Positions 11,663 through 36,880 of a stretch of DNA of 64,000 nt are shown in pieces. The DNA comes from Escherichia coli (GTDB lineage: Bacteria > Pseudomonadota > Gammaproteobacteria > Enterobacterales > Enterobacteriaceae), in the NCBI RefSeq assembly GCF_013122565.1, contig NZ_CP053258.1. One strand, written 5' to 3'. The position numbers were made by a program, and so were the translations under genes. Positions within the stretch are counted from its first letter, which is position 1. Each line of letters starts with the position of its first letter. The notes below the pieces were generated by a model. It searched no databases, had not been told where the DNA came from, and was given only the letters and a program-made list of their open reading frames with translations.

Positions 11663-13003
11663 GTGACTACATTAACGCTTGTTTTAACAGCAGTAGGGTC
11701 TGTTTTACTGCTGCTGTTTTTAGTCATGAAGGCGCGTATGCACGCTTTCCTGGCTTTGATGGTGGTGTCCATGGGGGCTGGCCTTTTTTCCGGTATGCCG
11801 CTCGATAAAATCGCAGCGACGATGGAAAAAGGGATGGGAGGCACCCTCGGCTTCCTGGCGGTGGTTGTCGCCCTGGGAGCTATGTTTGGCAAGATCTTAC
11901 ATGAAACCGGCGCAGTCGATCAGATTGCCGTCAAAATGCTCAAATCCTTCGGTCACAGCCGCGCGCATTATGCCATCGGCCTTGCGGGGCTGGTCTGTGC
12001 GCTACCGCTGTTCTTTGAAGTGGCGATTGTTCTGCTGATTAGCGTTGCTTTCTCAATGGCGCGCCACACCGGTACGAACCTGGTGAAGCTGGTAATCCCA
12101 TTATTTGCAGGCGTGGCGGCAGCGGCTGCGTTCCTGGTGCCTGGACCAGCGCCAATGCTGCTGGCATCGCAGATGAACGCCGATTTTGGCTGGATGATCC
12201 TGATTGGCCTGTGTGCGGCAATTCCGGGAATGATTATTGCTGGGCCGCTGTGGGGTAACTTTATCAGCCGTTACGTTGAGCTGCATATTCCTGACGACAT
12301 CAGCGAACCGCATCTCGGCGAAGGCAAAATGCCATCTTTCGGATTCAGCCTGTCGCTGATCCTGTTGCCGCTGGTGCTGGTGGGGCTGAAAACCATTGCC
12401 GCGCGTTTTGTGCCAGAAGGCTCTACCGCTTACGAATGGTTCGAGTTTATTGGTCATCCGTTTACCGCGATTCTGGTTGCTTGTCTGGTGGCGATTTACG
12501 GTCTGGCAATGCGTCAGGGCATGCCAAAAGACAAAGTGATGGAGATTTGCGGTCACGCGCTGCAACCGGCGGGGATCATTCTGCTGGTGATTGGTGCAGG
12601 CGGCGTGTTCAAACAGGTGCTGGTTGACTCTGGCGTAGGTCCGGCACTCGGCGAAGCGTTAACCGGCATGGGCCTGCCGATTGCCATCACCTGCTTCGTG
12701 CTGGCAGCGGCGGTGCGCATCATTCAGGGGTCTGCCACCGTTGCCTGCTTAACGGCGGTAGGACTGGTAATGCCGGTCATTGAACAACTGAACTACTCCG
12801 GTGCGCAAATGGCGGCGCTGTCGATTTGTATCGCCGGTGGTTCGATTGTTGTCAGCCACGTTAACGACGCTGGTTTCTGGTTGTTCGGTAAATTTACCGG
12901 CGCGACCGAAGCCGAAACGCTGAAAACCTGGACCATGATGGAAACCATCCTCGGCACTGTCGGTGCCATCGTTGGGATGATTGCGTTCCAGCTGTTGAGT
13001 TAA
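11663..13003 (+). CDS. gntU: low-affinity gluconate:H+ symporter (GntP family)
   Basis: 446-aa polytopic GntP-family transporter; apparent GTG start at 11663, 4 nt after the gntK stop. Confidence 0.9.
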   Translation: MTTLTLVLTAVGSVLLLLFLVMKARMHAFLALMVVSMGAGLFSGMPLDKIAATMEKGMGGTLGFLAVVVALGAMFGKILHETGAVDQIAVKMLKSFGHSRAHYAIGLAGLVCALPLFFEVAIVLLISVAFSMARHTGTNLVKLVIPLFAGVAAAAAFLVPGPAPMLLASQMNADFGWMILIGLCAAIPGMIIAGPLWGNFISRYVELHIPDDISEPHLGEGKMPSFGFSLSLILLPLVLVGLKTIAARFVPEGSTAYEWFEFIGHPFTAILVACLVAIYGLAMRQGMPKDKVMEICGHALQPAGIILLVIGAGGVFKQVLVDSGVGPALGEALTGMGLPIAITCFVLAAAVRIIQGSATVACLTAVGLVMPVIEQLNYSGAQMAALSICIAGGSIVVSHVNDAGFWLFGKFTGATEAETLKTWTMMETILGTVGAIVGMIAFQLLS

Positions 13004-13015
13004 TTACTGCGACAA

Positions 13016-13050
13016 ATTACTGCGAGCTTGCTCGCAGTAATTCATTTCTC
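13016..13050 (+). terminator. perfect palindromic hairpin after gntU
   Basis: aattactgcgagc-tt-gctcgcagtaatt followed by a T-rich tract; half-site also directly repeated at 13002-13012. Confidence 0.6.
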
Positions 13051-13142
13051 TTTTCTCCTCTCTTCATCTTTTTGATCTCTCTCGCAAATTTACCTGCTAA
13101 TAATCCGTTCTAATCACTGCCTAAAGATCGCAGGAGATAAAG

Positions 13143-15239
13143 ATGGAAAAGCACGGAGCTGAATTGCTTTTACAGCGGATGTTAGGCAATACCACCGCTA
13201 CTTTCAGGGAAGGTCAATGGGAAGCCATGGACGCGGTGGTGAACCGACGGCGAAAACTGCTGGTTGTCCAACGCACTGGCTGGGGGAAAAGCGCCGTGTA
13301 CTTCATCTCCAGTAAAATCTTCCGCGATCGCGGCGCTGGCCCGACAATTATCATCTCTCCTTTGCTTGCCCTGATGCGTAACCAGGTTGCCGCCGCTGAA
13401 CGGTTAGGTATTACGGCTGAAACGTTGAATTCTACAAACAGGGAAGAATGGCAGCGCATTAGCGATAAGTTGCTGCAAGGTGCGGTCGATTGCTTGCTGG
13501 TTTCCCCGGAACGTTTGGCAAACCAGGACTTTATCGAAACGGTTTTATATCCTATAGCCGATCGTATTGGTTTGCTTGTGGTCGACGAGGCGCACTGCAT
13601 CTCTGATTGGGGCCACGATTTTCGCCCGGATTACCGACGTATATTAGATATTTTGCGCCAACTGCCTGCGAATACCCCTGTTCTGGGTACAACCGCGACA
13701 GCGAATAACCGTGTCGTTGAGGATATCCGTCAGCAATTGGGTGACATTGTGATTCAGCGTGGAACGCTGGCTCGCGAAAGTTTGGCGCTTGATGCCTTAG
13801 TCTTAGGTGAACAGTCATCCCGTCTGGCATGGTTAGCAACGGTTATCCCTCAGTTTTCCAAATCGGGAATTGTTTATACCCTGACTACTCGCGATGCCGA
13901 ACTTGTCGCCGAGTGGTTAAGGACAAATGGTATCAGTGCATTTGCTTACTACAGCGGCGTGACTTGTGAAGGCGCGGAAGATTCTAATACTGCCAGGGAA
14001 TATCTGGAGCAGGCGCTGCTGGCAAATAAAATCAAAGTGCTGGTCGCGACGACGGCATTAGGTATGGGGTTTGATAAACCTGATTTAGGTTTCGTCATTC
14101 ATTATCAAATGCCGGGGTCTATTGTCGGTTACTACCAACAGGTAGGGCGTGCCGGGCGTGCTATAGATTCCGCTGTTGGCATATTGCTTTGTGGTGGTGA
14201 AGACCGCGCTATTCATAAATTCTTCCGTGAAAGCGCCTTTCCTGCGGAGGCGCAAATTCATGAAATACTCAACGTACTTAGCGAGAATGACGGTCTTACC
14301 CTACGAGGCATTGAACAACGGACGAATCTCCGTTATGGGCAAATAGAAAAAGCACTGAAATTATTGGTAGCTGAAAATCCATCGCCTGTGGTGTATACCG
14401 AGAAATTATGGCGCAGAACTATCGTCAGTTTCTCTCCTGACCATGAACGAATTAACCATTTGATGAATCAGAGAAAAAGTGAGCTGGCAGACGTTGAAAG
14501 CTATGTCACGACCAAGGAGTGCAAAATGCAATTTCTGCGCCGCGCACTCGATGAGCCAAGTGCCGAACGTTGTGGTAAATGTAGCAGTTGTCTTCAGCAT
14601 CCGTTGTTGTCGCCCGATATTGATAGCGGCTTACTCCATGCGGCAAATTTATTTATTAAACACGCTGACCTGCCATTAAATCTCAATAAACAGGTAGCAT
14701 CTGGGGCTTTTACGCAATACGGATTTAAAGGGAACTTGCCTGCGGGTTTACAAGGATCTACGGGGCGAGTCCTTTCTCGTTGGGGAGATTCCGGGTGGGG
14801 AAAGCAGGTAGCACAGGAGAAAAAAACGGGGCGATTCAGTGATGAGCTGGTGGAGGCATGTGCGGAAATGGTTCGCCAACGCTGGAATCCGCATCCTGAA
14901 CCAACCTGGGTATGCTGCGTTCCTTCATTAAGGCACCTCGACCTGGTTCCTAATTTTGCCCGGCGACTGGCGGCGAAACTTGGCTTACCTTTTATTGATG
15001 CCATTGAAAAAGTCGTGGACAATCCACCGCAGAAAATGCAGCAAAACCGTTTTCACCAGTGTCAAAATCTCGACGGGGCGTTTGTGATTACCCCTCCTTT
15101 GATGCCAGGTCCGGCGTTGCTGGTTGACGATATCGTGGATTCTGCATGGACGCTGACAGTTCTGACAGCACTGTTACGCCAGGCAGGTTGCCCGACGGTT
15201 TATCCTCTTGCCCTTGCTTCTACCTCGGTAAAAAATTGA
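13143..15239 (+). CDS. RecQ-family superfamily-2 DNA helicase fused to a C-terminal ComF/GntX-like phosphoribosyltransferase-like domain
   Basis: 698 aa. Walker A QRTGWGKS (aa 43-50); DEAH box VVDEAHCISDWGHDFRPDY (nt 13584-13595); motif III TATA; motif VI QQVGRAGR; Cys cluster ERCGKCSSC; C-terminal LLVDDIVDSAWTLTVLTALL resembles the PRPP-binding loop of PRTases (compare GntX VIVDDVVTTGSTVAEIAQLL in this window). Confidence 0.75.
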   Translation: MEKHGAELLLQRMLGNTTATFREGQWEAMDAVVNRRRKLLVVQRTGWGKSAVYFISSKIFRDRGAGPTIIISPLLALMRNQVAAAERLGITAETLNSTNREEWQRISDKLLQGAVDCLLVSPERLANQDFIETVLYPIADRIGLLVVDEAHCISDWGHDFRPDYRRILDILRQLPANTPVLGTTATANNRVVEDIRQQLGDIVIQRGTLARESLALDALVLGEQSSRLAWLATVIPQFSKSGIVYTLTTRDAELVAEWLRTNGISAFAYYSGVTCEGAEDSNTAREYLEQALLANKIKVLVATTALGMGFDKPDLGFVIHYQMPGSIVGYYQQVGRAGRAIDSAVGILLCGGEDRAIHKFFRESAFPAEAQIHEILNVLSENDGLTLRGIEQRTNLRYGQIEKALKLLVAENPSPVVYTEKLWRRTIVSFSPDHERINHLMNQRKSELADVESYVTTKECKMQFLRRALDEPSAERCGKCSSCLQHPLLSPDIDSGLLHAANLFIKHADLPLNLNKQVASGAFTQYGFKGNLPAGLQGSTGRVLSRWGDSGWGKQVAQEKKTGRFSDELVEACAEMVRQRWNPHPEPTWVCCVPSLRHLDLVPNFARRLAAKLGLPFIDAIEKVVDNPPQKMQQNRFHQCQNLDGAFVITPPLMPGPALLVDDIVDSAWTLTVLTALLRQAGCPTVYPLALASTSVKN

Positions 15240-16441
15240 TGAATCTTTCAGCCAATGCACAAGCAACTCTCCTGCTAACCAGCGATTTTTCTCGCGCGGC
15301 GGCGAGTGAGTATAACCCTCTTAGTAATAGTGAATGGGGGAAGTTTGCATTATGGCTGAAGCACCAACGTATCAGTCCCGCCGATCTTCTGGTGCCGCAA
15401 CCGCAAGAGAAACTTACAGGCTGGAGCGATCCGCGTATTTCTCAGGAGCGTATTCTTGGCTTGCTGGCGCGTGGTCATAGTCTGGCGTTGGCGGTAGATA
15501 AGTGGCAACGCGCCGGTTTATGGATCTTAACCCGCGGAGATGCCGATTATCCCGTTCGCTTGAAAAACCGATTGCGAACGGATGCACCTCCCGTTTTATT
15601 TGGCTGTGGGAATAAAGCATTACTGCAAGCGGAAGGTATGGCGATTGTTGGCTCGCGAGATGCTCCGACTGACGATTTGCGCTATACCCAACAACTGGCC
15701 GCGAAACTGGCCCAACAGGGGATTTGCGTTATCTCTGGTGGTGCGCGAGGTATTGATGAATGTGCAATGGCGTCGGCACTGGAGGCCGGGGGAACTGCCG
15801 TTGGCGTATTAGCTGATAGCTTGTTAAAAACGAGCACGTTAGTGAAATGGCGTGAAGGGCTTATAGCAGGCAACCTGGTGTTGATTTCGCCGTTTTACCC
15901 AGAGGTACGTTTCACTGTCGGCAATGCGATGGCGCGGAATAAATATATTTATTGCCTTGCTGAAAGCGCAATGGTTGTACGTGCGGGAATGTCCGGTGGA
16001 ACGATAACCGGGGCGATGGAAGCATTAAAACATCAGTGGCTGCCTGTGCAGGTTAAACCAAATCAGGATATGCAATCAGCCAATTCACGATTAGTAGAAA
16101 ATGGGGCGTCATGGAGTACTGAACAGGCTGAGAATGTGACGTTCAGACTGCCAGACGTTACTGGGCTGATTTATGACAAAGCACTCCGTAACGCTCAACC
16201 AGAACTGTTTTCGCTGCATGAAGATGACGCAAATTACGCAGTAATGCCCGCGCATACGCCTGTCGATTTTTATCAACTCTTTGTGGCGGAACTGGCGATC
16301 CTTGCAAAGGAATCGATAAGTATTGAAAGGCTGGCGTCTTGTACTGGTTTAACCATCGAACAAATTCGTGTGTGGCTGAACCGCGCAGAAGAAGAGGGAA
16401 GGGTTATTCGATTGGGCGAAGGTCATTATCAGTTCAGGTAA
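15239..16441 (+). CDS. DprA/Smf-like (SLOG Rossmann-fold) DNA-processing protein with a C-terminal winged-helix-like tail
   Basis: 400 aa from MNLSANAQ; ATG overlaps the helicase TGA (TGATG). DprA core motifs MAIVGSRDAP...GICVISGGARGIDECAMASALEAGG (nt ~15737-15757); C-terminal SIERLASCTGLTIEQIRVWLNRAEEEGRVIRL looks like a winged helix. Confidence 0.75.
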   Translation: MNLSANAQATLLLTSDFSRAAASEYNPLSNSEWGKFALWLKHQRISPADLLVPQPQEKLTGWSDPRISQERILGLLARGHSLALAVDKWQRAGLWILTRGDADYPVRLKNRLRTDAPPVLFGCGNKALLQAEGMAIVGSRDAPTDDLRYTQQLAAKLAQQGICVISGGARGIDECAMASALEAGGTAVGVLADSLLKTSTLVKWREGLIAGNLVLISPFYPEVRFTVGNAMARNKYIYCLAESAMVVRAGMSGGTITGAMEALKHQWLPVQVKPNQDMQSANSRLVENGASWSTEQAENVTFRLPDVTGLIYDKALRNAQPELFSLHEDDANYAVMPAHTPVDFYQLFVAELAILAKESISIERLASCTGLTIEQIRVWLNRAEEEGRVIRLGEGHYQFR

Positions 16442-16444
16442 TAA

Positions 16445-16481
16445 AACAGGTGCCGCGTCTGGTTGTGTGCAGCACCTGTTT
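16445..16481. terminator. bidirectional hairpin between the convergent DprA-like gene and yhgN
   Basis: Inverted repeat aacaggtgc...gcacctgtt lying between the two convergent stop codons. Confidence 0.55.
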
Positions 16482-16486
16482 GAACC

Positions 16487-17080
16487 TTACCCCTTCATCC
16501 ACATTCGAATGCCGTCGAGGAACATCTGGGTTGCCATCATCACCAGAATCAATCCCATCAGGCGTTCAAGTGCGTTCACCCCTTTCTCGCCCAGCAGACG
16601 TAAAAATAGCGAAGACTGTAGCAGGATGACAAAGGTGCCGCCCCAGGCCAGCAGCAGAGCAATCACCAGATGTCCCATCTGATTCGGGTACTGATGAGAC
16701 AACAACATCAGCGTGGCGAGAATAGTCGGCCCGGCGACTAACGGAATTGCCAACGGCACGATAAACGGCTCTTCACCTGCCGGAAGCCCGCTGCTATTTC
16801 CTGAAGCGCTGGGAAAAATCATCTTAATGGCGATCAGAAACAGAATGATGCCGCCAGAAATGGAGACGGTTTCTGCTCGCAGGCTGAGAAATGCCAGAAT
16901 TTTCTCACCCGCAAACAGGAACACCAGCATCACCAGGAGAGCAATAAGCAACTCTCGCACCATGATTGCCCGCCGTCTTTTCGGTTCAGTATGTTTCAGT
17001 ACGGACATGAAAATAGGTAGGTTTCCGAGCGGATCCATAATCAGGATCAATAAAACTGCTGCAGAAATGATTTCATTCAT
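16487..17080 (-). CDS. yhgN: MarC-family (UPF0056) inner membrane protein
   Basis: 197-aa polytopic membrane protein; conserved position upstream of asd. Confidence 0.88.
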   Translation of the reverse strand: MNEIISAAVLLILIMDPLGNLPIFMSVLKHTEPKRRRAIMVRELLIALLVMLVFLFAGEKILAFLSLRAETVSISGGIILFLIAIKMIFPSASGNSSGLPAGEEPFIVPLAIPLVAGPTILATLMLLSHQYPNQMGHLVIALLLAWGGTFVILLQSSLFLRLLGEKGVNALERLMGLILVMMATQMFLDGIRMWMKG

Positions 17081-25550: not shown

Positions 25551-28016
<2,466 letters not shown>

Positions 28017-28039
28017 GTTCACTAAAAAACAGAACGGGG

Positions 28040-28070
28040 CCAAAGGGTCCCGTTTTTTTTCGCCATCATT
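28040..28070 (+). terminator. intrinsic terminator after glgP
   Basis: Hairpin aacggggccaaagggtcccgtt followed by a run of 8 T. Confidence 0.7.
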
Positions 28071-28132
28071 TCGGAAAAGTGTCCAGAAGGGGCAAGGGGA
28101 CTCGGGGAGTATAATTTCGCCATTCAGAAAGA

Positions 28133-29650
28133 ATGGAAAGAATAATGCAAAACAGAAAATGGATTTTGACCTCGCTGGTAATGACTTTTTTCGGCATCCC
28201 CATACTGACGCAATTTTTGGCAGCGGTTGTTGCTATGCTGGGGGGCGGGCTTGCCGCTATTCTTGAGGTTTGCAATTTACTCTTTACGCCAGCAATTTAT
28301 CTTCTACTCAACGTCTTTATGCTGACTCTGGGGGCGATAATAATATTTTTCTCTGGTCGCGTGTGGGCGGGCGATAGTGCACCAGAAAAAAAAGAAATAG
28401 CCGTCTGGCGACAATGTCTTTTTTTAGTACCTGCTTTATTCACCCTGGTTGGCTGGATAATCACGCTACATCTGGCAGATTATCAATTTCGCCAGATGGG
28501 AGACGGTTGGTTGGCAAACCTTATGCTTCCCTGGTTGGGCGTTTTTTTAGTCTCATTAGTGGGTGGTGAGTACTGGTGGATAGTCATTATACCCGTTGGC
28601 GCGCATATCAGTTTTTCGCTGGGGTACGGTTGGCCGACCAGACATCTTTTAACGGGCACGTCCGGGTTACGTTGCCGTAATTCCCTCTTGTTTATCCTTC
28701 TCATGCTTGGTTTTGTCGCCGGTTACCAGGCTTATTTATATAAACAGCTTAATCCCGGCGTCGGTGTGCGTGAAAATATTGATACCTGGGCCTGGCGACC
28801 CGATAAACTCAATAATCAACTGACACCACTGCGTGGTAAACCGCAAATTCAGTTCACGCAAAACTGGCCGCGACTCGATGGTGCTACGGCGGCGTACCCA
28901 ATTTATGCCTCTGCATTTTATGCTTTAAGCGTTATACCGGAAGATTTTCACGCCAGGAAATATCTGGAGAACTCTCGTACCCCCGATGCGTATAACAGGA
29001 TTGTTAAAGGTGATGCCGATATTATTTTTGTGGCGCAGCCCTCCGGTGGGCAGAAAAAACGCGCTGAGGAATCGGGCGTCACTTTGCTGTACACGCCTTT
29101 TGCCCGTGAAGCGTTTGTTTTCATCGTCAATGCAGATAACCCGGTTAATTCCCTGACCGAACAACAAGTGCGTGACATCTTCAGTGGCGCAATTACCAAC
29201 TGGCGCACGGTTGGCGGTAACGATCAGGAGATCCAGACCTGGCAACGCCCGGAAGACTCAGGTAGCCAGACGGTGATGCAGGCGCAGGTCATGAAAAATG
29301 TACGTATGATCTCGCCGCAGGAGACCGAAGTGGCTGAAATGATGGGAGGGATGATTAAAGTTGTTGCCGAATACCGTAATACAAACAACTCAATAGGCTA
29401 CACCTTCCGCTATTACGCAACGCAAATGAATACCGATAAGAATATCAAATTGTTAGCGATTAACGGTATTGCACCGACTGCGGAAAACATCCGTAACGGC
29501 AAATATCCCTATATCGTCGATGCCTTTATGGTAACGCGGGAAAATATGACGTCAGAAACGCAAAAACTGGTGGAATGGTTTTTAACGCCGCAGGGGCAAA
29601 GCCTGGTGGAAGATGTGGGTTATGTGCCGATGTATCCAACAATGAAATAA
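28133..29650 (+). CDS. membrane-embedded protein with C-terminal PstS-like periplasmic binding domain
   Basis: 505 aa. N-terminal ~200 aa contains about 5-6 hydrophobic helices; C-terminal ~290 aa resembles PstS-family binding proteins (GATAAYPIYASAFY, WQRPEDSGSQTVMQ, VGYVPMYP). Start could be 28145. Confidence 0.55.
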   Translation: MERIMQNRKWILTSLVMTFFGIPILTQFLAAVVAMLGGGLAAILEVCNLLFTPAIYLLLNVFMLTLGAIIIFFSGRVWAGDSAPEKKEIAVWRQCLFLVPALFTLVGWIITLHLADYQFRQMGDGWLANLMLPWLGVFLVSLVGGEYWWIVIIPVGAHISFSLGYGWPTRHLLTGTSGLRCRNSLLFILLMLGFVAGYQAYLYKQLNPGVGVRENIDTWAWRPDKLNNQLTPLRGKPQIQFTQNWPRLDGATAAYPIYASAFYALSVIPEDFHARKYLENSRTPDAYNRIVKGDADIIFVAQPSGGQKKRAEESGVTLLYTPFAREAFVFIVNADNPVNSLTEQQVRDIFSGAITNWRTVGGNDQEIQTWQRPEDSGSQTVMQAQVMKNVRMISPQETEVAEMMGGMIKVVAEYRNTNNSIGYTFRYYATQMNTDKNIKLLAINGIAPTAENIRNGKYPYIVDAFMVTRENMTSETQKLVEWFLTPQGQSLVEDVGYVPMYPTMK

Positions 29651-29675
29651 CCCTTGAGAGAAGGGAATCAGGGCG

Positions 29676-30677
29676 ATGAATAAATTCACAGAAGTTTTAC
29701 TGCTAGGTGCGGTATTACTGGCGGGATACGCCGACCGGGAAGCATACTATAACAGCGTCAGGGAAGAAGAGAGTCATGGACTGACTTCTCTGCGGGGACA
29801 GCCTGAATTACGTTACAGCGAAGATTGGTCAAGATGGCCCAGAGTGTACGGCGCTACCGCCTTATACCCCCTGTATGCTTCTGCATATTATGAATTAGTA
29901 CCGGAGCCGAAAGATGCGGATCAAACCTCACTGGCCTGGCAGGCGTATGGTCTGCAGCAAACCCGAACAGCTGAAGCCTACGATAATCTGATTAAAGGTA
30001 CTGCGACTGTTATTTTTGTCGCGCAACCTTCTGAAGGGCAGAAAAAACGTGCAGAAGAAGCGGGAGTTAAGCTGAAATATACCGCGTTTGCCCGCGAAGC
30101 CTTTGTCTTTATCGTTGATATCAAAAACCCGGTGAATTCACTCAGCGAACAGCAGGTCAAAGACATTTTTAGCGGTAAAGTGAGTCGCTGGAATAAAGTC
30201 GGTGGCAGCGACGAACGCATAAAAGTGTGGCAGCGCCCGGAAGATTCCGGTAGCCAGACGGTAATGCAAGAGTTAGTTATGCAAGGCACACCGATGTTAC
30301 CCGCTAAAAAATCAACCATGGTTGATCTTATGGGTGGGTTAATTACCGAAGTCGCCGACTATCAAAACACGCCATCTTCAATCGGTTATACCTTTTATTA
30401 TTATGTTACGCGTATGAATAGTAATATGCTCAAAATGCGCAAGCAGATCAAATTATTAGCCATCAACGGCGTCGCCCCCACTGAGGAAAATATTCGCAAC
30501 GGATCTTATCCCTATATTGTGGACGCCTATATGGTGACCCGTGAAAATCCAGCACCGGAAACGCAAAAGTTTGTCGACTGTTTTTTAAGCCCGCAGGGGC
30601 AACAGTTGGTGCAGGATGTGGGGTATGTGCCTTTATACCCGATTACGAACTCTCGTAAAAAGGATTTTGAAAAATGA
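29676..30677 (+). CDS. secreted PstS-like periplasmic binding-domain protein, paralog of the preceding gene
   Basis: 333 aa with N-terminal signal peptide; shares GATALYPLYASAYY, WQRPEDSGSQTVMQ and VGYVPLYP with the upstream gene. Confidence 0.55.
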   Translation: MNKFTEVLLLGAVLLAGYADREAYYNSVREEESHGLTSLRGQPELRYSEDWSRWPRVYGATALYPLYASAYYELVPEPKDADQTSLAWQAYGLQQTRTAEAYDNLIKGTATVIFVAQPSEGQKKRAEEAGVKLKYTAFAREAFVFIVDIKNPVNSLSEQQVKDIFSGKVSRWNKVGGSDERIKVWQRPEDSGSQTVMQELVMQGTPMLPAKKSTMVDLMGGLITEVADYQNTPSSIGYTFYYYVTRMNSNMLKMRKQIKLLAINGVAPTEENIRNGSYPYIVDAYMVTRENPAPETQKFVDCFLSPQGQQLVQDVGYVPLYPITNSRKKDFEK

Positions 30678-30952
30678 AAATATCAATAAGTAAACTTAGT
30701 GAATTTAAAAAGGTTTCTTTATTATTTCTGGCCTACTCATTATTTATTACTGCTGGGTGTGTCAGTCATCAGAATGTTACTGAAAGTATAAAAGAAAAAC
30801 AGAGTTATAATATTACAAGGATACAGGGGAAACCCGTATTACAAATTCCCGAAAAGGAAGCAACGTGGTTGACCGTGGCGAGGGCCACTACGTTATATCC
30901 ATTGTACTCTTCGGCATATCACATGGTTATAGTTGAACCCAGTGGACACTGA
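30674..30952 (+). pseudogene. truncated third PstS-like paralog with lipoprotein signal peptide
   Basis: 92 aa; lipobox ITAGC, then only the first ~45 aa of the binding domain (IQGKPVLQIPE...ATTLYPLYSSAYH) before a stop; ATGA overlap with the upstream gene; very AT-rich DNA follows. Confidence 0.5.
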
Positions 30953-31027
30953 TTCTGATAATATAGAAAAATCAATGATTAACGTCTCTGTTAATATGGG
31001 TATTACTCAGTAAAGGTAAGAAAAATT

Positions 31028-31219
31028 ATGCTGAAACGATTATTTTTTATTATTCTTATTTTATCCGCAACGGGATGTTCTATTGTTGACACCTCTCTGG
31101 AGAAAAAAGACTTACTTAATTTATCTGTATATGAAAATAATATTGTTGATAATTCAGTGTTAATAAGAGTTGTAGCCAGTCAAAAGGTAAAAGAGACCTG
31201 GTATATATGCAACGAATAA
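31028..31219 (+). CDS. small putative lipoprotein (hypothetical)
   Basis: 63 aa; signal peptide with lipobox LSATGC; in the AT-rich block. Confidence 0.35.
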   Translation: MLKRLFFIILILSATGCSIVDTSLEKKDLLNLSVYENNIVDNSVLIRVVASQKVKETWYICNE

Positions 31220-31671
31220 TAGAAAAAGCTTTAACGGTTTTGCTTATGATTTACGCCGGATCAGCAGCTGCCGAAGGTAAAGTGAACGATTTATGCCACA
31301 TAGGTGATCGTGTAGATAAACTTGAGATTACAAATTATCCTCATGATTACGAGTCGCTAGTTGCAGTTGATGAGAAGCGATTGAATGAAATTTATAAATA
31401 CAAGGTTGAAATTACCTATCTTGATAATAAAGAAAGTAAAAAAATTGTTGAACTATTACAAATGGATTATGCGGAACAAGAAGAAAATGTTACTGATGTG
31501 AGGTGGCGGGTGAATATCACTTCATATGGAAATAAAAAATGTGATATCTATTTTGATGGTTTTGGCTTATGTGGAAAAATTAATGGTGAGAATGTCTGTT
31601 TCAGGCATAACGAAATGATACGGTGGATTGAGTCTCATATTTCTGTATTTCTACATAGTGTTAACGAATGA
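31207..31671 (+). CDS. small secreted hypothetical protein
   Basis: 154 aa; signal peptide ending AGSAAAEG; AT-rich codon usage. Confidence 0.4.
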   Translation: MQRIIEKALTVLLMIYAGSAAAEGKVNDLCHIGDRVDKLEITNYPHDYESLVAVDEKRLNEIYKYKVEITYLDNKESKKIVELLQMDYAEQEENVTDVRWRVNITSYGNKKCDIYFDGFGLCGKINGENVCFRHNEMIRWIESHISVFLHSVNE

Positions 31672-31690
31672 ATGTGAAAAAGGAATTTAT

Positions 31691-32143
31691 ATGCAATTTT
31701 TATTTAAAAATAATAAATTATTTTTTATAAGGATAAGGTTAGTTTCGGTTATTTTATTTTTATTTATGAGTACTTCCTTGTATGCTAAAAATCCATGTGA
31801 AGGACTTAAAGGTGATTTACCTGCGGCGCAGTTAATTCCACTTAAGAAAAATATTGCCAGGCAGTTGAATTCTGAAATGGAACAGGTAGTAGAAGTTAAT
31901 AAAGTTGAAATATTATCTTTCGATACCTTGCAGGAATGGTCAATTGTTGGTGTCGCTACCGGAGTATCAGATGATGCATTGTTAATTTATAAAGGGAATA
32001 TCACTAAAACTGATTATGTGGCATTATTTGGAGGCGCTGCAAGTATTAACGATGACATGATCCAATGGATAAACCAGAAAGCGCCGGGAATTCCAGATAA
32101 GTTGGCACAATGTTTTGCGTGGGGAGCTGTATATCGTGATTGA
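31691..32143 (+). CDS. small secreted hypothetical protein
   Basis: 150 aa from MQFLFKNNK with aagga Shine-Dalgarno 8 nt upstream; signal peptide ending LYAKNP. Confidence 0.4.
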   Translation: MQFLFKNNKLFFIRIRLVSVILFLFMSTSLYAKNPCEGLKGDLPAAQLIPLKKNIARQLNSEMEQVVEVNKVEILSFDTLQEWSIVGVATGVSDDALLIYKGNITKTDYVALFGGAASINDDMIQWINQKAPGIPDKLAQCFAWGAVYRD

Positions 32144-32161
32144 TAATAAAAGGACAACCAA

Positions 32162-32869
32162 ATGGAATTAGTTGATACGTTATTTGCAAGCCTCGCCGGT
32201 ACTGATCCTTTCACAGGCGTGGATATTACGATTGCCAAATGCGAATCGGCATATTGGGCCGAGGGCATTGTTCAGCTGCTCATTAACCAGGCCCTGGATG
32301 AAGGGGAAAAGTTCGTCGGTGCTGCCGGTCTTGAGGGATTGCTTCGATATGATGTCACATTAAATATTGGCTTAACGTCCAGCAATGTATGGCCGGGGTT
32401 TTCCCTCGATACCGCCACCATTGGCCGTCTTTGTGCCTGTGGTGCTGACTTTGGATTTGACCCTTATATCAGTGATGTACCAGATGTTCAATGTGACCTG
32501 AACACGACAAATGACTTCACCGTTCAATTTACGGCGATGCTCAACCCGGAGCGGGCGATCATAGCAAAGCGCCCGCTTAAAAAATGTGACTCCTGGATTG
32601 AGGATGTCTATATCTTTCAGGTCTTTAAAGAAGCCTGGAAGTTTCATAACGATAACAGCTTACGAGGATTTCGCGATAAGCAGGCTGAACTGAAACTCTA
32701 CGCGCGTCATTACTCAGTGGAAAATTGTATAGAGGAAAGCTGCCGTGACTGTAATAGTTGTATTCGGCCCAGCTTTTCCCTTTCTCGTAGTGCCATTATT
32801 CGCCTGAACGCGGCGAATGCTCGTTTTGTTTATCAACCGTTTACACGCGACCAGCGGGCGAGGGGGTAA
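32162..32869 (+). CDS. hypothetical protein, Cys-rich C-terminal part
   Basis: 235-aa ORF with no recognisable family; stop lies 2 nt before the next start. Confidence 0.4.
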   Translation: MELVDTLFASLAGTDPFTGVDITIAKCESAYWAEGIVQLLINQALDEGEKFVGAAGLEGLLRYDVTLNIGLTSSNVWPGFSLDTATIGRLCACGADFGFDPYISDVPDVQCDLNTTNDFTVQFTAMLNPERAIIAKRPLKKCDSWIEDVYIFQVFKEAWKFHNDNSLRGFRDKQAELKLYARHYSVENCIEESCRDCNSCIRPSFSLSRSAIIRLNAANARFVYQPFTRDQRARG

Positions 32870-32871
32870 TT

Positions 32872-33660
32872 ATGCAACCCAGTCCCGCCATGCAGAATAT
32901 TATTGCCCATGCCTGGGCGATATTTCATTTTTATCCTGCACCGCAACAGTTCAATATTTGCGTTCCTTGCTGTGTCAGCGAAGAGGTCGCGCAGGCGTTA
33001 CGGCAAACACCGTTACGTCAATTAACCGTTGAAATGATATATGAATGGAACAGTAGCGCGAGGCCTTTTGAACAACAGAATGATGAAATCCGTTACCTCC
33101 TTCCGAGACTGCTGGAATTACTGGCTCACGGTCATTGTCCTGCCATAAATGAAGAGTTATGCCTGAAACGTATTGGCGCTATTTCCCTGGACACCTGGCA
33201 GCCGGAGGAGCGTGATGTACTTACCGATTTTTCCCGCCAGTATATTCGCGATTTATTACTTACCCCGACATTGACCGATCTTGAATCTGCCCTCGTGATG
33301 TTTCATTTTGCCGGACTATCTATAACGGCTTTATTAGATGAGGCGCTGAACACGCCTGGCTATTGGGCTATCGCTTCGCTGGCCTATTTTTTGTATATCA
33401 AGCGTCCAAACGGCGAATTACGTAACGCGTTTATCTCACGCAAGCCGGATGGTGAAGTGATAACGCAGCAAATTAACGCCTGGATTGCGCAATCATGTCA
33501 CGCGCTGGCAGAACGCGCCGCGGCGGCGATTGAATGCTCGCCATCCCTTCCCGGCGGTGGACACACGGAGTACAGTGTTGACCTGAGCTACCTGATTGAC
33601 GAAAGCCTTTGTGCGCTTGTTGATTATCAATTGCTCTGGACGATGGACCGTAATGAATAA
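32872..33660 (+). CDS. hypothetical protein, paralog A of a tandem pair
   Basis: 262 aa beginning MQPSPAMQ; shares N-terminal Cys motif, NDEIRYLLPRL and other blocks with the next gene. Confidence 0.45.
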   Translation: MQPSPAMQNIIAHAWAIFHFYPAPQQFNICVPCCVSEEVAQALRQTPLRQLTVEMIYEWNSSARPFEQQNDEIRYLLPRLLELLAHGHCPAINEELCLKRIGAISLDTWQPEERDVLTDFSRQYIRDLLLTPTLTDLESALVMFHFAGLSITALLDEALNTPGYWAIASLAYFLYIKRPNGELRNAFISRKPDGEVITQQINAWIAQSCHALAERAAAAIECSPSLPGGGHTEYSVDLSYLIDESLCALVDYQLLWTMDRNE

Positions 33661-33671
33661 GGAGATTCACA

Positions 33672-34448
33672 ATGCAACCCAGCCCCGCCATGCAGGCATT
33701 AATTGAGCAGATTTATCATATTTTTCGTCGTTATCCGGTGCCGTCGAGATTTCATGTTTGTTGTCCTTACTGCTTTAGCGAAGAACAACAACAAGCCTTA
33801 AAAGGGGTTTCACTGCGTGCCATACCTTTCCCTTTATTACATGCCTGGGGAACAAGTATTGGCCCTAACCCACAAAATGATAATGAGATTCGCTATTTAT
33901 TACCCAGATTGTTTGACTTTATTGCCCAAAGGCAATTTCCAGGCATTTATGAAGGCTGCTGTTTACAGAGAATAGCAGAAGCAGATAACCAGAACTGGCG
34001 AGCGGATGAACTACAAATAATTAGCGATTTCGCCTATTTATATATGCAGGATTGGGTGTCGGTTAAGGAAGTTGTGGAGCTGGAAATAATATTAGAAATG
34101 TTTTATCGCGGTGGTATAAAGATTGAACCCTTACTTGACGCTATTATGTCCATTTCCGGTTACTGGCCGACGGCGTCAATGGCATGTTTGCTCTGGCGTA
34201 ACAGTAAAGAATACGTCGAAAATAGCGAGTTTGAGCAGAGTGATGATGATAAAACCATTACCACCCAAATCAATACCTGGGCTAGAAATAATCATCCTTT
34301 GCTGAAAGAACGCGCGCGGCAAGCGATTGAGAACCCGCTAAAACAGCCCGAACAGGGCACACGATATCAGGTCTGGGAAGACGACTGGATGATTGATGAG
34401 TGTTTGTGCGCAATGTATGACGCATCATCCGAATCATCAGGACAATAA
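33672..34448 (+). CDS. hypothetical protein, paralog B of a tandem pair
   Basis: 258 aa beginning MQPSPAMQ; paralogous to 32872..33660. Confidence 0.45.
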   Translation: MQPSPAMQALIEQIYHIFRRYPVPSRFHVCCPYCFSEEQQQALKGVSLRAIPFPLLHAWGTSIGPNPQNDNEIRYLLPRLFDFIAQRQFPGIYEGCCLQRIAEADNQNWRADELQIISDFAYLYMQDWVSVKEVVELEIILEMFYRGGIKIEPLLDAIMSISGYWPTASMACLLWRNSKEYVENSEFEQSDDDKTITTQINTWARNNHPLLKERARQAIENPLKQPEQGTRYQVWEDDWMIDECLCAMYDASSESSGQ

Positions 34449-34450
34449 AG

Positions 34451-34633
34451 ATGAATAAAATCAAACTTTATATTCCTCCGCTATTTCTCGGCTTTGTTAT
34501 TGTGCCGCTGTTGGTGTGGCCGACGGTGGTTGCGCTGGCGGCTTTTGGTATCACGCTGAGTTTTCTGGGGGAGTTACTGTTCTTAATCCCGATCATAGTC
34601 CGACGTATGTCACTTCTGGAAGCACAACTTTGA
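34451..34633 (+). CDS. small hydrophobic membrane protein, possibly the N-terminal part of a stop-interrupted gene
   Basis: 60 aa with two predicted transmembrane helices; same reading frame as the following ORF, separated by a single TGA. Confidence 0.3.
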   Translation: MNKIKLYIPPLFLGFVIVPLLVWPTVVALAAFGITLSFLGELLFLIPIIVRRMSLLEAQL

Positions 34634-34666
34634 TTATCGGCTGAATATACGCTTGTTTTCTGTGCA

Positions 34667-35050
34667 ATGGTGGGCGTTGGTTGGCAATTCTCTCGCAGAA
34701 CGTCACCTGAATTAAAAAACAGACTGCATTTTTGGCTGGTCTTTACACCGGTTTATTTCTGGTTGCTTCTGTGGAATATCATTTTCTATATCGGGCCAGC
34801 GAAAAATGCATTGCTGGAAAATATCCGCAATTTCTTTTTAACAATTGTCTGGTTACCGCTGAATTTTTCGCCACTTTGGTCCCAACCGTGGACTGACTTT
34901 GTCGGTCCAATAAGCGCACAGCTTGGTTTTGCGTTGGGATATTATTGCCAGTGGCGTAGCAAAAATAGAAGCCAGGGGCAGAAGTGGGGTGAGTGGGGAA
35001 CGTGTCTTAGTTTTGTTACGTTGGGTATGATGGCATGGGTTTTGCGGTAA
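34667..35050 (+). CDS. hydrophobic membrane protein, possibly the C-terminal part of a stop-interrupted gene
   Basis: 127 aa with predicted transmembrane helices; in frame with 34451..34633. Confidence 0.3.
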   Translation: MVGVGWQFSRRTSPELKNRLHFWLVFTPVYFWLLLWNIIFYIGPAKNALLENIRNFFLTIVWLPLNFSPLWSQPWTDFVGPISAQLGFALGYYCQWRSKNRSQGQKWGEWGTCLSFVTLGMMAWVLR

Positions 35051-35100
35051 TTTCCTGAATCAAAAAGCAGGCCAGATTGTTGACGAAGTGCGCTTTGTTC

Positions 35101-35199
35101 ATGCCGGATGCGGCGTGAACGCCTTATTCGGCCTACAAAATCATGCAAATTCAATATATTGCATAAACCACGTAGGCTTGATAAGCGTAGCGCATCAGG
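35101..35199. repeat. BIME: two inverted REP units
   Basis: gccggatgcggcgtgaacgccttattcggcctac and gtaggcttgataagcgtagcgcatcagg in inverted orientation. Confidence 0.7.
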
Positions 35200-35263
35200 A
35201 AATTTTGTGTTTGTCATCAGTCTCAGGCCAGATTGAAATCTGACCTGATCACCTTACGTTAAT

Positions 35264-36769
35264 TTACGACGCCAGCGACAACTTCTGCTGCGTATACTCC
35301 ACCAGCCACTGACTCACACGAGATTGTTGATCCGCATTCAGCCACATGCCTTGTTTTGTGCGACGCCACAGGGCATCGTCGGCGCGGCGGACCCATTCGT
35401 GATCCACCAGGTATTTCAGCTCCGCTTCGTAGAACTCATGACCGAAATCCTCCCCGAGGTCGCTTATCGCCCCTGCATTGCCGAGCAGCAGTTCGCTGTT
35501 GCTGCCGTAAGTGCGCGCGTAGTGACGTGCCAGCGATTCAGTCAGGAATGGATAGCGACGGCGCAGACGAGCGGCATAATCGTCGCGGTCACCTTCAATG
35601 GCACCACCCGGCAGCACGCTCTCTTTCGTCCACGCCGGGCCAATACCCTGATAATACGGCGTCAGTTTTTCCAGCGCATGTTCCGCCAGTTTGCGGTAGG
35701 TGGTCAGCTTACCGCCGAATACCGACAGCAGCGGTGCTTTGCCGTTTTCATCATGGATATCAAGGGTGTAATCACGGGTAATAGCCTGCGGCGAGTCGGA
35801 CTCATCATCACACAGCGGACGCACACCGGAGTAGGTCCAGACGATATCATCACGGCTTAGCTGCTTTTTAAAGTGCGTGTTATACACTTTCAGCAGGTAA
35901 TTGATTTCACTCTCTTCAATCTTCACTGCTTTCGGATCACCTTTGTATTCCACATCGGTGGTGCCGATGATTGAAAACTCGTCCATCCACGGGATCACGA
36001 ACACAATACGTTTATCTTCGTTTTGCAGAATGTAGGCTTGCTTCTGGGTATGCACGCGTGGTACCACAATATGGCTGCCTTTGATCAGGCGAATGCCATA
36101 AGGTGAGGGCAGATGCATCCCGTCGTCGAAGAACTGTTTCACCCACGGGCCGGTGGCGTTAACCAGGCCGCGCGCTTGCCAGCTATATTTTTTGCCGGTA
36201 TCGATATCTTCCGCTTCCACAATCCACAGGCCGTTTTCGCGGCGAGCAGAGGTGGCGCGAGTCCGAGTAAGCACTTCGCCGCCTTTACGCACCACCATCT
36301 GGGCGTTGGCGAGTACCAGACGGGCGTCGTCTACCCAACAGTCAGAATATTCGAATCCGCGCTTAATTTCCGGTTTTAACACTGAGTTTGCGCCAAAACG
36401 CAAACCGGTTGATCCCGGCAGGCTGGTGCGTTTACCCAGATGATCGTACATAAACAGACCAATGCGAATCATCCACGCCGGGCGCAGATGCGGACGATGC
36501 GGCAGGCGAAAACGCATCGGGAAGGCGATATGAGGGGCCATTTTCAGTAGCACTTCACGTTCAGCCAGCGCCTCGCTGACCAGGCGGAATTCATAGTGCT
36601 CAAGGTAGCGCAGGCCACCGTGAATGAGTTTTGAACTGGCGGAAGAGGTCGCACAAGCGAGATCCTGCGCCTCCAGCATCAGCACGGATAAACCGCGTCC
36701 AGCGGCGTCTGCCGCGATACCAGCACCATTGATGCCGCCCCCTATCACAATCAGATCTTTGGTTTCCAT
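35264..36769 (-). CDS. glpD: aerobic glycerol-3-phosphate dehydrogenase
   Basis: 501 aa from METKDLIVIGGGINGAG (FAD-binding Rossmann motif). Confidence 0.93.
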   Translation of the reverse strand: METKDLIVIGGGINGAGIAADAAGRGLSVLMLEAQDLACATSSASSKLIHGGLRYLEHYEFRLVSEALAEREVLLKMAPHIAFPMRFRLPHRPHLRPAWMIRIGLFMYDHLGKRTSLPGSTGLRFGANSVLKPEIKRGFEYSDCWVDDARLVLANAQMVVRKGGEVLTRTRATSARRENGLWIVEAEDIDTGKKYSWQARGLVNATGPWVKQFFDDGMHLPSPYGIRLIKGSHIVVPRVHTQKQAYILQNEDKRIVFVIPWMDEFSIIGTTDVEYKGDPKAVKIEESEINYLLKVYNTHFKKQLSRDDIVWTYSGVRPLCDDESDSPQAITRDYTLDIHDENGKAPLLSVFGGKLTTYRKLAEHALEKLTPYYQGIGPAWTKESVLPGGAIEGDRDDYAARLRRRYPFLTESLARHYARTYGSNSELLLGNAGAISDLGEDFGHEFYEAELKYLVDHEWVRRADDALWRRTKQGMWLNADQQSRVSQWLVEYTQQKLSLAS

Positions 36770-36880
36770 GCTGCCCTCATTCACTTTCGTTAAAGCTCAT
36801 AAATGTTCGTTATCGAACATATTAGCAAAGAATCGCGCTTTAGGTAACATTGAAAAAACATTTTAGAGTGATATGTATAA

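Follow-up and report, generated by a model that had tools for sequence, protein, structure and literature searches.

A divergent DprA-family protein encoded behind a RecQ-like helicase in Escherichia coli is very probably the RqlI/PsyrA antitoxin

We analysed a stretch of 64,000 nucleotides (nt) from Escherichia coli (RefSeq assembly GCF_013122565.1, contig NZ_CP053258.1), called the window throughout, and in particular an open reading frame (ORF) at positions 15239-16441 that encodes a DprA-like protein directly behind a helicase gene. This ORF is very probably rqlI (also known as psyrA), the antitoxin gene of the two-gene RqlHI/PsyrTA toxin-antitoxin and anti-phage module. The original prediction, made from the DNA alone, had presented it as a second, divergent DprA paralogue located away from the housekeeping smf locus and linked to a helicase. 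The paralogy, the helicase link, the SLOG core and the winged helix were all read correctly; what was missed is the published identity of the pair. That is, the ORF is the already described RqlI/PsyrA antitoxin, and the finding is real, not new. The two genes and their junction are laid out as follows.

13143-15239, plus strand: psyrT (rqlH), the toxin gene, encoding 698 amino acids (aa) with a RecQ-family superfamily 2 helicase core and, at the C-terminus, a phosphoribosyltransferase (PRTase) domain; assigned from PADLOC, NCBIfam, Pfam and the published RqlH length.

14667-15236, plus strand: the putative PRTase domain of PsyrT, aa 509-698; assigned from a weak Pfam match, the DIVD663 motif and published mutagenesis and truncations (PMC4670107).

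15237-15241, plus strand: TGATG overlap, read from the sequence, in which the psyrT stop codon TGA (15237-15239) shares its A with the psyrA ATG (15239).

15239-16441, plus strand: psyrA (rqlI), encoding the DprA-family antitoxin of 400 aa; assigned from PADLOC, Pfam, homologues and the published RqlI length.

The psyrA frame is intact on the plus strand (400 codons and a stop), and the opposite strand is crowded with stops. Its identity is carried by a PADLOC profile for PsyrA (PDLC03927), which matches the protein from end to end (residues 1-400 against profile positions 1-397 of 398) with an E value of 1.2e-200 and 664.7 bits. Pfam adds the DNA_processg_A family (PF02481) at residues 89-293 (E 4.6e-51) and SLOG cluster 4 (PF18306) at residues 135-273 (E 3e-11). 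The closest E. coli proteins in the searched databases are 96-97% identical and carry the DprA name, with most substitutions relative to these copies falling in the linker and the C-terminal part. RefSeq (PGAP) also labels the gene 'DNA-processing protein DprA' and gives it 431 aa, starting from an ATG at 15146, 93 nt upstream of ATG 15239 and within the helicase gene (window 15146-15238; compared with L002:5347-5439). Since the motif MN(L/I)(S/T/L) opens 37 of 37 aligned homologues at the position matching ATG 15239, the conserved family start is probably this ATG, giving 400 aa, and the RefSeq start is probably over-extended. The RefSeq name is probably misleading as well.

The upstream gene belongs to the same module by its own profile: the PADLOC PsyrT model covers residues 3-697 (profile positions 5-687 of 689; E = 0, 1062.9 bits). 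NCBIfam TIGR00614, the RecQ family, scores 247 bits against a cut-off of 219.8, and Pfam recognizes DEAD, Helicase_C and RecQ_Zn_bind domains (the last with the RecQ zinc-binding cysteines). Towards the C-terminus, the Pribosyltran family (PF00156) gives a weak match at residues 605-683 (E 0.0084), and the sequence LLVDDIVDS, a loop of the kind that binds phosphoribosyl pyrophosphate (PRPP), occupies aa 659-667 (nt 15117-15143), with DIVD starting at residue 663. The putative PRTase assignment draws on this weak match, the PRPP-loop motif and published mutagenesis together. Between the two genes, no Shine-Dalgarno sequence was read ahead of the psyrA start. The one-base TGATG overlap points to translational coupling of psyrT and psyrA, which, with psyrA devoid of its own Shine-Dalgarno sequence, would tie antitoxin synthesis to toxin synthesis. 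The predicted coupling to the helicase is thus borne out down to a shared base.

Most of what is known about the module comes from extraintestinal pathogenic E. coli F11, in which RqlH has 698 aa and RqlI 400 aa (Russell & Mulvey 2015, PMC4670107). There, rqlH and rqlI form an operon, and RqlH alone leads to SOS induction, filamentation and mutagenesis (PMC4670107). The toxicity was located in the PRTase domain (residues 509-690), and neither the DIVD663EVME nor the D663A mutant does harm (PMC4670107). RqlI blocks the genotoxicity of RqlH and co-immunoprecipitates with it only when the PRTase domain is present (PMC4670107). Within RqlI, the N-terminal part and the DprA region are required (N-terminal truncations fail to complement), and the helix-turn-helix (HTH) is dispensable (PMC4670107). 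The same paper equates RqlHI with PsyrT/PsyrA of Sberro et al. 2013. Published effects of the module include gut colonisation and genome stability (SOS induction and a raised mutation rate). PsyrTA was later counted among two-gene systems involved in phage resistance, in a study in which PsyrTA and ShosTA each couple a DprA-like antitoxin with a PRTase toxin (Millman et al. 2022, bioRxiv 10.1101/2022.05.11.491447). Protection by the pair against phage was thus seen in heterologous tests. Our literature search found no account resolving the PRTase substrate or the PsyrTA trigger.

From these observations a working mechanism can be proposed. Left unrestrained, the PRTase domain of PsyrT would damage DNA through a PRPP-dependent activity, induce SOS and stop growth. 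PsyrA, a DprA-family (SLOG superfamily) protein, would have been taken over as the keeper of this toxin, binding PsyrT via its PRTase domain and holding it inactive, as shown for the E. coli orthologue of the same lengths (698 and 400 aa). Upon phage infection the restraint would be lost, and the cell would be arrested or killed.

Several points weigh against this interpretation. One study of an E. coli PsyrTA in its native host detected no protection from the phages tried, and expression of the system slowed growth (bioRxiv 10.1101/2024.12.20.629700). The toxicity, binding and defence attributed to the present allele are drawn by analogy from papers on orthologues, and the allele is only 96-97% identical in protein sequence to its closest E. 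coli copies. By sequence alone the PRTase call is weak (the Pfam E value of 0.0084, and a best match in the Protein Data Bank (PDB) to an adenine phosphoribosyltransferase at E 0.24). Finally, the sensing of single-stranded DNA (ssDNA) by PsyrA, considered below, is an extrapolation, and the third DNA-binding arginine is replaced (M260, beside the invariant E261).

The name under which the gene is filed suggests another explanation. The protein could be a working second DprA alongside Smf, one that attaches to ssDNA, either incoming or damaged, and loads RecA during transformation or recombination, with the helicase as its DNA-processing partner. The PF02481 domain (E 4.6e-51), a DprA fold with the three-domain layout of Rhodopseudomonas palustris DprA (3MAJ), the retention of two of the three ssDNA-binding arginines and the RefSeq annotation all speak for it. 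Yet PsyrA reaches only 102.8 bits on TIGR00732, the curated DprA equivalog, against a cut-off of 191.15, and 80.5 bits on the E. coli-type DprA model (NF008007/PRK10736) against a cut-off of 495. Its identity to E. coli Smf is 32%, over 156 aa only. Moreover, the gene is accessory (30% of strains), the DprA loop with its 'YP' motif is replaced by residues invariant in the PsyrA family (T200 and K203-W204-R205), and the published phenotype of RqlI depends entirely on the upstream toxin (PMC4670107). Both the curated cut-offs and the published genetics speak against a working second DprA, and we consider it very improbable. Judged from sequence scores, PsyrA is a member of the DprA superfamily and not a DprA orthologue.

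The canonical gene itself is elsewhere, as had been predicted. In K-12, smf adjoins def and fmt, and 5422 of 5426 complete E. coli genomes have it; a search of the window with Smf returned a single weak paralogue, PsyrA, and no smf. The existence in E. coli of an additional, more canonical DprA besides RqlI has also been pointed out (PMC4670107). The possibility that PsyrA is the sole, relocated smf copy is ruled out by the near-universal presence of smf at its own locus and by the weak paralogy of the only match in the window. A further suggestion was that the paralogue may load or recruit a different effector; it is not known to have such a role, and the E. coli orthologue binds the helicase via its PRTase domain and neutralises it.

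PsyrA was modelled with AlphaFold2 on 37 homologues (mean predicted local distance difference test score, pLDDT, 83.9). The model and the alignment of the family divide the protein into four parts.

15239-15502, plus strand: N-terminal helical domain, aa 1-88; from the model helices, with 29 of 88 positions invariant in the 37 homologues.

15503-16117, plus strand: DprA/SLOG Rossmann domain, aa 89-293 (GSR at 138-140, SGGARGID at 166-173, R233); from Pfam, Foldseek and the residue map.

16118-16261, plus strand: disordered, unconserved and length-variable linker, aa 294-341; from the model and the homologue alignment.

16262-16438, plus strand: winged helix, aa 342-400 (about 59 aa); from the model (three helices and then a beta hairpin) and the Foldseek match to 3MAJ.

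Among the 37 homologues, invariant positions make up 33% of the N-domain, 31% of the Rossmann core, 0% of the linker and 7% of the winged helix; in the linker, homologues have large insertions, and pLDDT falls below 50 over residues 305-341. Because the N-domain is strongly conserved and the published N-terminal truncations lose activity, we infer that the N-domain and the Rossmann core form the toxin-binding surface that holds the PRTase domain. Searched against the PDB with Foldseek, the model has its top match in R. palustris DprA 3MAJ (3.5e-19), over the full three domains, followed by Streptococcus pneumoniae DprA 3UQZ, ShosA 8ZVA (8.4e-16) and Helicobacter pylori DprA (4LJ*). Proteins that carry the molybdenum cofactor (MoCo) and LOG proteins come lower, at 1e-6 to 1e-4, and this likeness of fold accounts for the 'MoCo-binding domain' predicted in 2015, a region overlapping the DprA homology region (PMC4670107).

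The architecture given in the original prediction needs adjusting in its details. The SLOG fold is present in the predicted structure, and both GSR and SGGARGID were found; the literal spacing GSRxxxxxGxxxA does not hold, as PsyrA reads GSRDAPTDDLRYTQQLA at this site, with D and T at the expected G and A. The N-terminal region of about 130 aa corresponds to the distance to the GSR motif, and the helical N-domain proper ends near residue 88. The winged-helix tail is there, with about 59 aa rather than about 70.

Residues were mapped with an alignment of PsyrA, ShosA, Smf and an H. pylori DprA segment. As the ShosA reference we took a P2-like phage protein whose residues 22-349 are near-identical to positions 4-331 of 9VZO_A (736 bits). 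In this alignment, R140 and R233 of PsyrA fall on the ssDNA-binding arginines R52/R143 of H. pylori DprA and R139/R234 of ShosA; across the 37 homologues R233 never varies, and R140 is kept in at least 90%. The retained pair suggests that PsyrA still contacts ssDNA, which may serve to sense infection or DNA stress. The third ssDNA-binding arginine (R170 in H. pylori DprA, R261 in ShosA) has become M260, at a position where the family has E, M, L or K, beside the invariant E261.

These arginines bear on a further alternative, in which PsyrA acts as an indirect (type IV) antitoxin in the manner of ShosA. It would then bind ssDNA and RecA and promote recombinational repair of the damage done by the PRTase, rather than mainly sequester the toxin, and excess phage ssDNA would titrate it. 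Among characterised defence proteins, ShosA comes closest (PADLOC ShosA 92.4 bits; PDB 8ZVA/9VZO E 3e-7; Foldseek 8.4e-16), and in both systems the toxin damages DNA by way of a PRTase domain. The antitoxin activity of ShosA needs R139/R234 for ssDNA and K200/R206 for RecA (PMC12961424), of which PsyrA keeps the counterparts R140, R233 and R205. On the other hand, K200 is replaced by S199, and the ShosA dimer residues L181/F182 by E182/A183, with the reservation that the mapping of the dimer and RecA residues is approximate (a sequence alignment with a nearby 2-residue gap). Of the RecA-contact and dimerisation residues, whose check had been proposed at the outset, the one retained is R205. 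The toxins also differ: the PRTase region of PsyrT has no significant similarity to ShosT in BLASTP (E 0.017 outside the PRPP loop and 0.9 at the loop), and in PADLOC PsyrT has no ShosT profile match, its other matches being DpdF profiles only. The gene order is reversed, with the antitoxin first in ShosTA. RqlI co-immunoprecipitates with RqlH via the PRTase domain, and ShosA and ShosT do not bind each other. We therefore regard an indirect, ShosA-like action as unlikely, and direct restraint of the toxin by PsyrA remains our preferred explanation.

A last alternative starts from the Rossmann pocket. As a SLOG ligand sensor or enzymatic antidote, PsyrA would bind the phosphoribosyl product of the PRTase or, like LOG phosphoribohydrolases, cleave it, so that the antitoxin reads or reverses the chemistry of the toxin. 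LOG enzymes convert a nucleoside monophosphate into the base and ribose-5-phosphate, formally the reverse of a PRTase reaction, which counts in favour of this idea. The PF18306 match (E 3e-11) and the Foldseek matches to MoCo-carrier and LOG proteins (1e-6 to 1e-4) point the same way, as does a set of invariant residues: G253, T255, G258, A259 and E261, with an acidic residue at the third DNA-binding arginine of DprA, Smf and ShosA. The LOG catalytic motif is PGGxGTxxE, however, and the GGTxxGAxE of the PsyrA family (G253, G254, T255, G258, A259 and E261) lies one residue off, out of register with it. SLOG matches are also expected, since all DprA proteins belong to SLOG; neither a ligand nor an activity is known, and direct binding in the published data already explains neutralisation. 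We hold this sensor or antidote to be distinctly improbable; the results speak neither for nor against the SLOG-type nucleotide sensor as such that the original prediction had suggested.

Parts of these ideas could be combined with toxin binding. PsyrA may be the sensor of the system, its ssDNA groove (R140, R233) or its altered SLOG pocket (E261) binding phage replication intermediates or the phosphoribosylated PRTase product, and thereby releasing or chemically counteracting the toxin. We put this forward as a speculation with a small chance of being right. If true, the DprA fold would have the role of a sensor of infection or of an 'eraser' antitoxin comparable to DarG.

The pairing of the two genes extends well beyond E. 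coli. Of 8000 candidates scored in a word-indexed protein search, 5146 reached E <= 1e-5. In the best 120 of these, coverage of the PsyrA query is at least 96% except for one partial entry, and entries from other genera mostly share about 50% identity with it. We looked at ten further loci outside E. coli, found in Marinobacter, Vibrio, Shewanella, Citrobacter, Alcaligenaceae, Providencia, Brenneria and metagenome contigs. In all ten, a helicase gene of 698-714 aa lies directly upstream of psyrA with an overlap of 1-4 nt, and most of these helicases have a Pribosyltran match on record. The published survey is concordant with this helicase-PRTase/psyrA pairing.

Some of these loci have a further layer of organization. 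In Marinobacter, Vibrio vulnificus and Shewanella, psyrTA is nested between hsdS and hsdR in the operon of a type I restriction-modification system (hsdM-hsdS-psyrT-psyrA-hsdR), and in a fourth locus fragments of HsdS and HsdR flank psyrTA.

L004:537-10514, L005:547-10587 and L010:1-9605: psyrTA loci nested in hsd operons.

L012:3525-7812: remnant of such a locus (the fourth one).

The HsdR proteins of Marinobacter and Vibrio are 81% identical, so that the five genes make up a shared cassette. The arrangement is reminiscent of PrrC, an anticodon nuclease encoded within the EcoprrI hsd locus. By analogy, the restriction enzyme and PsyrTA may be functionally coupled in the hsd-nested loci.

In E. 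coli the module is an accessory insert at one site. In 1641 of 5426 complete genomes (about 30%) the pair separates gntU from yhgN, and in the rest these two genes are adjacent. In the window, gntR, gntK and gntU are the left neighbours and yhgN, asd, glgB, glgX and glgC the right ones. The junction alignment shows a 3.5-kb insert at gntU|yhgN that wholly replaces the 56-bp spacer of a K-12 derivative. No direct repeats are visible at either insert junction in the alignment with an empty K-12-type site, and the 3.5-kb insert holds no integrase or transposase. The GC content at third codon positions (GC3) is 0.45-0.48 for psyrT and psyrA against 0.58-0.63 for the flanking genes, and because of this lower GC3 the data fit a horizontally acquired pair, inserted between the core genes gntU and yhgN.

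The module is also more diverged than the core DNA that surrounds it. In the comparison of window 12800-16700 with the 5426 complete genomes, the best DNA match of the insert is 98.6% identical and the flanking core DNA 99.0-99.5%; the PsyrA protein is 96% identical to the copy in the best-matching genome. Citrobacter werkmanii carries psyrTA at the same gntU|yhgN junction (L006:3905-7206), with a PsyrA of 63% protein identity. Either the insertion took place before the two genera separated and has since changed faster than its flanks, or the junction has been targeted repeatedly.

Candidate signals for expression were found at the edges of the insert.

13015-13042, plus strand: terminator hairpin after gntU, at the left edge of the insert; from a terminator scan, with an RNA fold of -16.6 kcal/mol (z -4.7).

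13132-13136, plus strand: Shine-Dalgarno sequence AGGAG, 6 nt before the psyrT/rqlH start codon; read from the sequence.

16444-16481, both strands: inverted repeat in the gap between psyrA and yhgN (convergent genes), folding at -18.9 kcal/mol on the plus strand (z -3.4) and -23.6 kcal/mol on the minus strand (z -5.2).

In the junction alignment, the K-12 intergenic sequence homologous to the position of the first hairpin differs. A promoter scan of 12900-16600 found no consensus promoter on the plus strand upstream of psyrT; the operon promoter presumably lies in the AT-rich leader at 13043-13142 (GC 0.40 over 13004-13142). The inverted repeat is followed by UUUUAUU on the minus strand and is probably a bidirectional terminator for psyrA and yhgN.

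A second variable spot lies further along the window, at 28017-35263, where about 6.5 kb separate glgP (25569-28016) from glpD (35264-36784, minus strand). Two of its ORFs (505 and 333 aa) have sub-threshold PstS-family C-terminal halves, and for the next five (154-262 aa) NCBIfam, PADLOC and PHROGs returned nothing. Coverage of this block reaches 80% or more in only 1 of the 5426 complete E. coli genomes, at 91% identity. Elsewhere, shorter or different versions, or yzgL only, occupy this highly variable spot.

In practical terms, the gain is one of annotation: the RefSeq 'DprA' label hides the antitoxin of a defence/toxin-antitoxin module present in about 30% of E. coli. What the PRTase targets, how the toxin is released during infection and whether ssDNA is read are questions about PsyrTA as a known system, and this window does not newly raise them.

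The closest known relative is RqlI of E. coli F11 (PMC4670107). It comes from the same species, has the same length of 400 aa and shows the same layout (an N-terminal region, a DprA homology region overlapping the 'MoCo-binding' region, and an HTH). Its upstream partner is likewise a 698-aa RecQ-like helicase-PRTase with DIVD at residue 663, encoded by an overlapping gene of the same operon. The two are likened by published lengths, motif, layout and the PADLOC profile. With its closest proteins at 96-97% and a best DNA match of 98.6%, the PsyrA of the window is an allelic variant.

ShosA (8ZVA, 9VZO; PMC11961720, PMC12961424) shares with PsyrA the DprA fold, a helical N-domain, the two conserved core ssDNA-binding arginines and a role in phage defence as the antitoxin to a DNA-damaging toxin with a PRTase domain. 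It is nevertheless a separate family: the PsyrA of the window scores 92.4 and 30 bits on the ShosA profiles (residues 85-266 only) against 664.7 on the PsyrA profile, and a true ShosA scores 764.6 bits on its own. The partner of ShosA is a stand-alone PRTase (ShosT), which it does not bind; that of PsyrA is a helicase-PRTase fusion, and RqlI does bind its toxin. The dimer residues and one RecA-contact residue of ShosA are not conserved in PsyrA, which has an extra linker and winged helix and the opposite gene order.

Canonical DprA/Smf proteins (Smf b4473, 3MAJ, 3UQZ and H. pylori 4LJR) have in common with PsyrA the PF02481 core with GSR and SGxARGID and, in the long DprAs, the succession of N-terminal helical domain, Rossmann fold and C-terminal winged helix. 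PsyrA differs from them in falling below the equivalog cut-offs, in being accessory and located at gntU-yhgN instead of smf-def-fmt, and in the replacement of the third DNA-binding arginine and of the conserved loop; its known role is toxin control, not transformation. LOG/SLOG binders, finally, share the SLOG Rossmann fold with PsyrA, in which the LOG catalytic motif is not in register.

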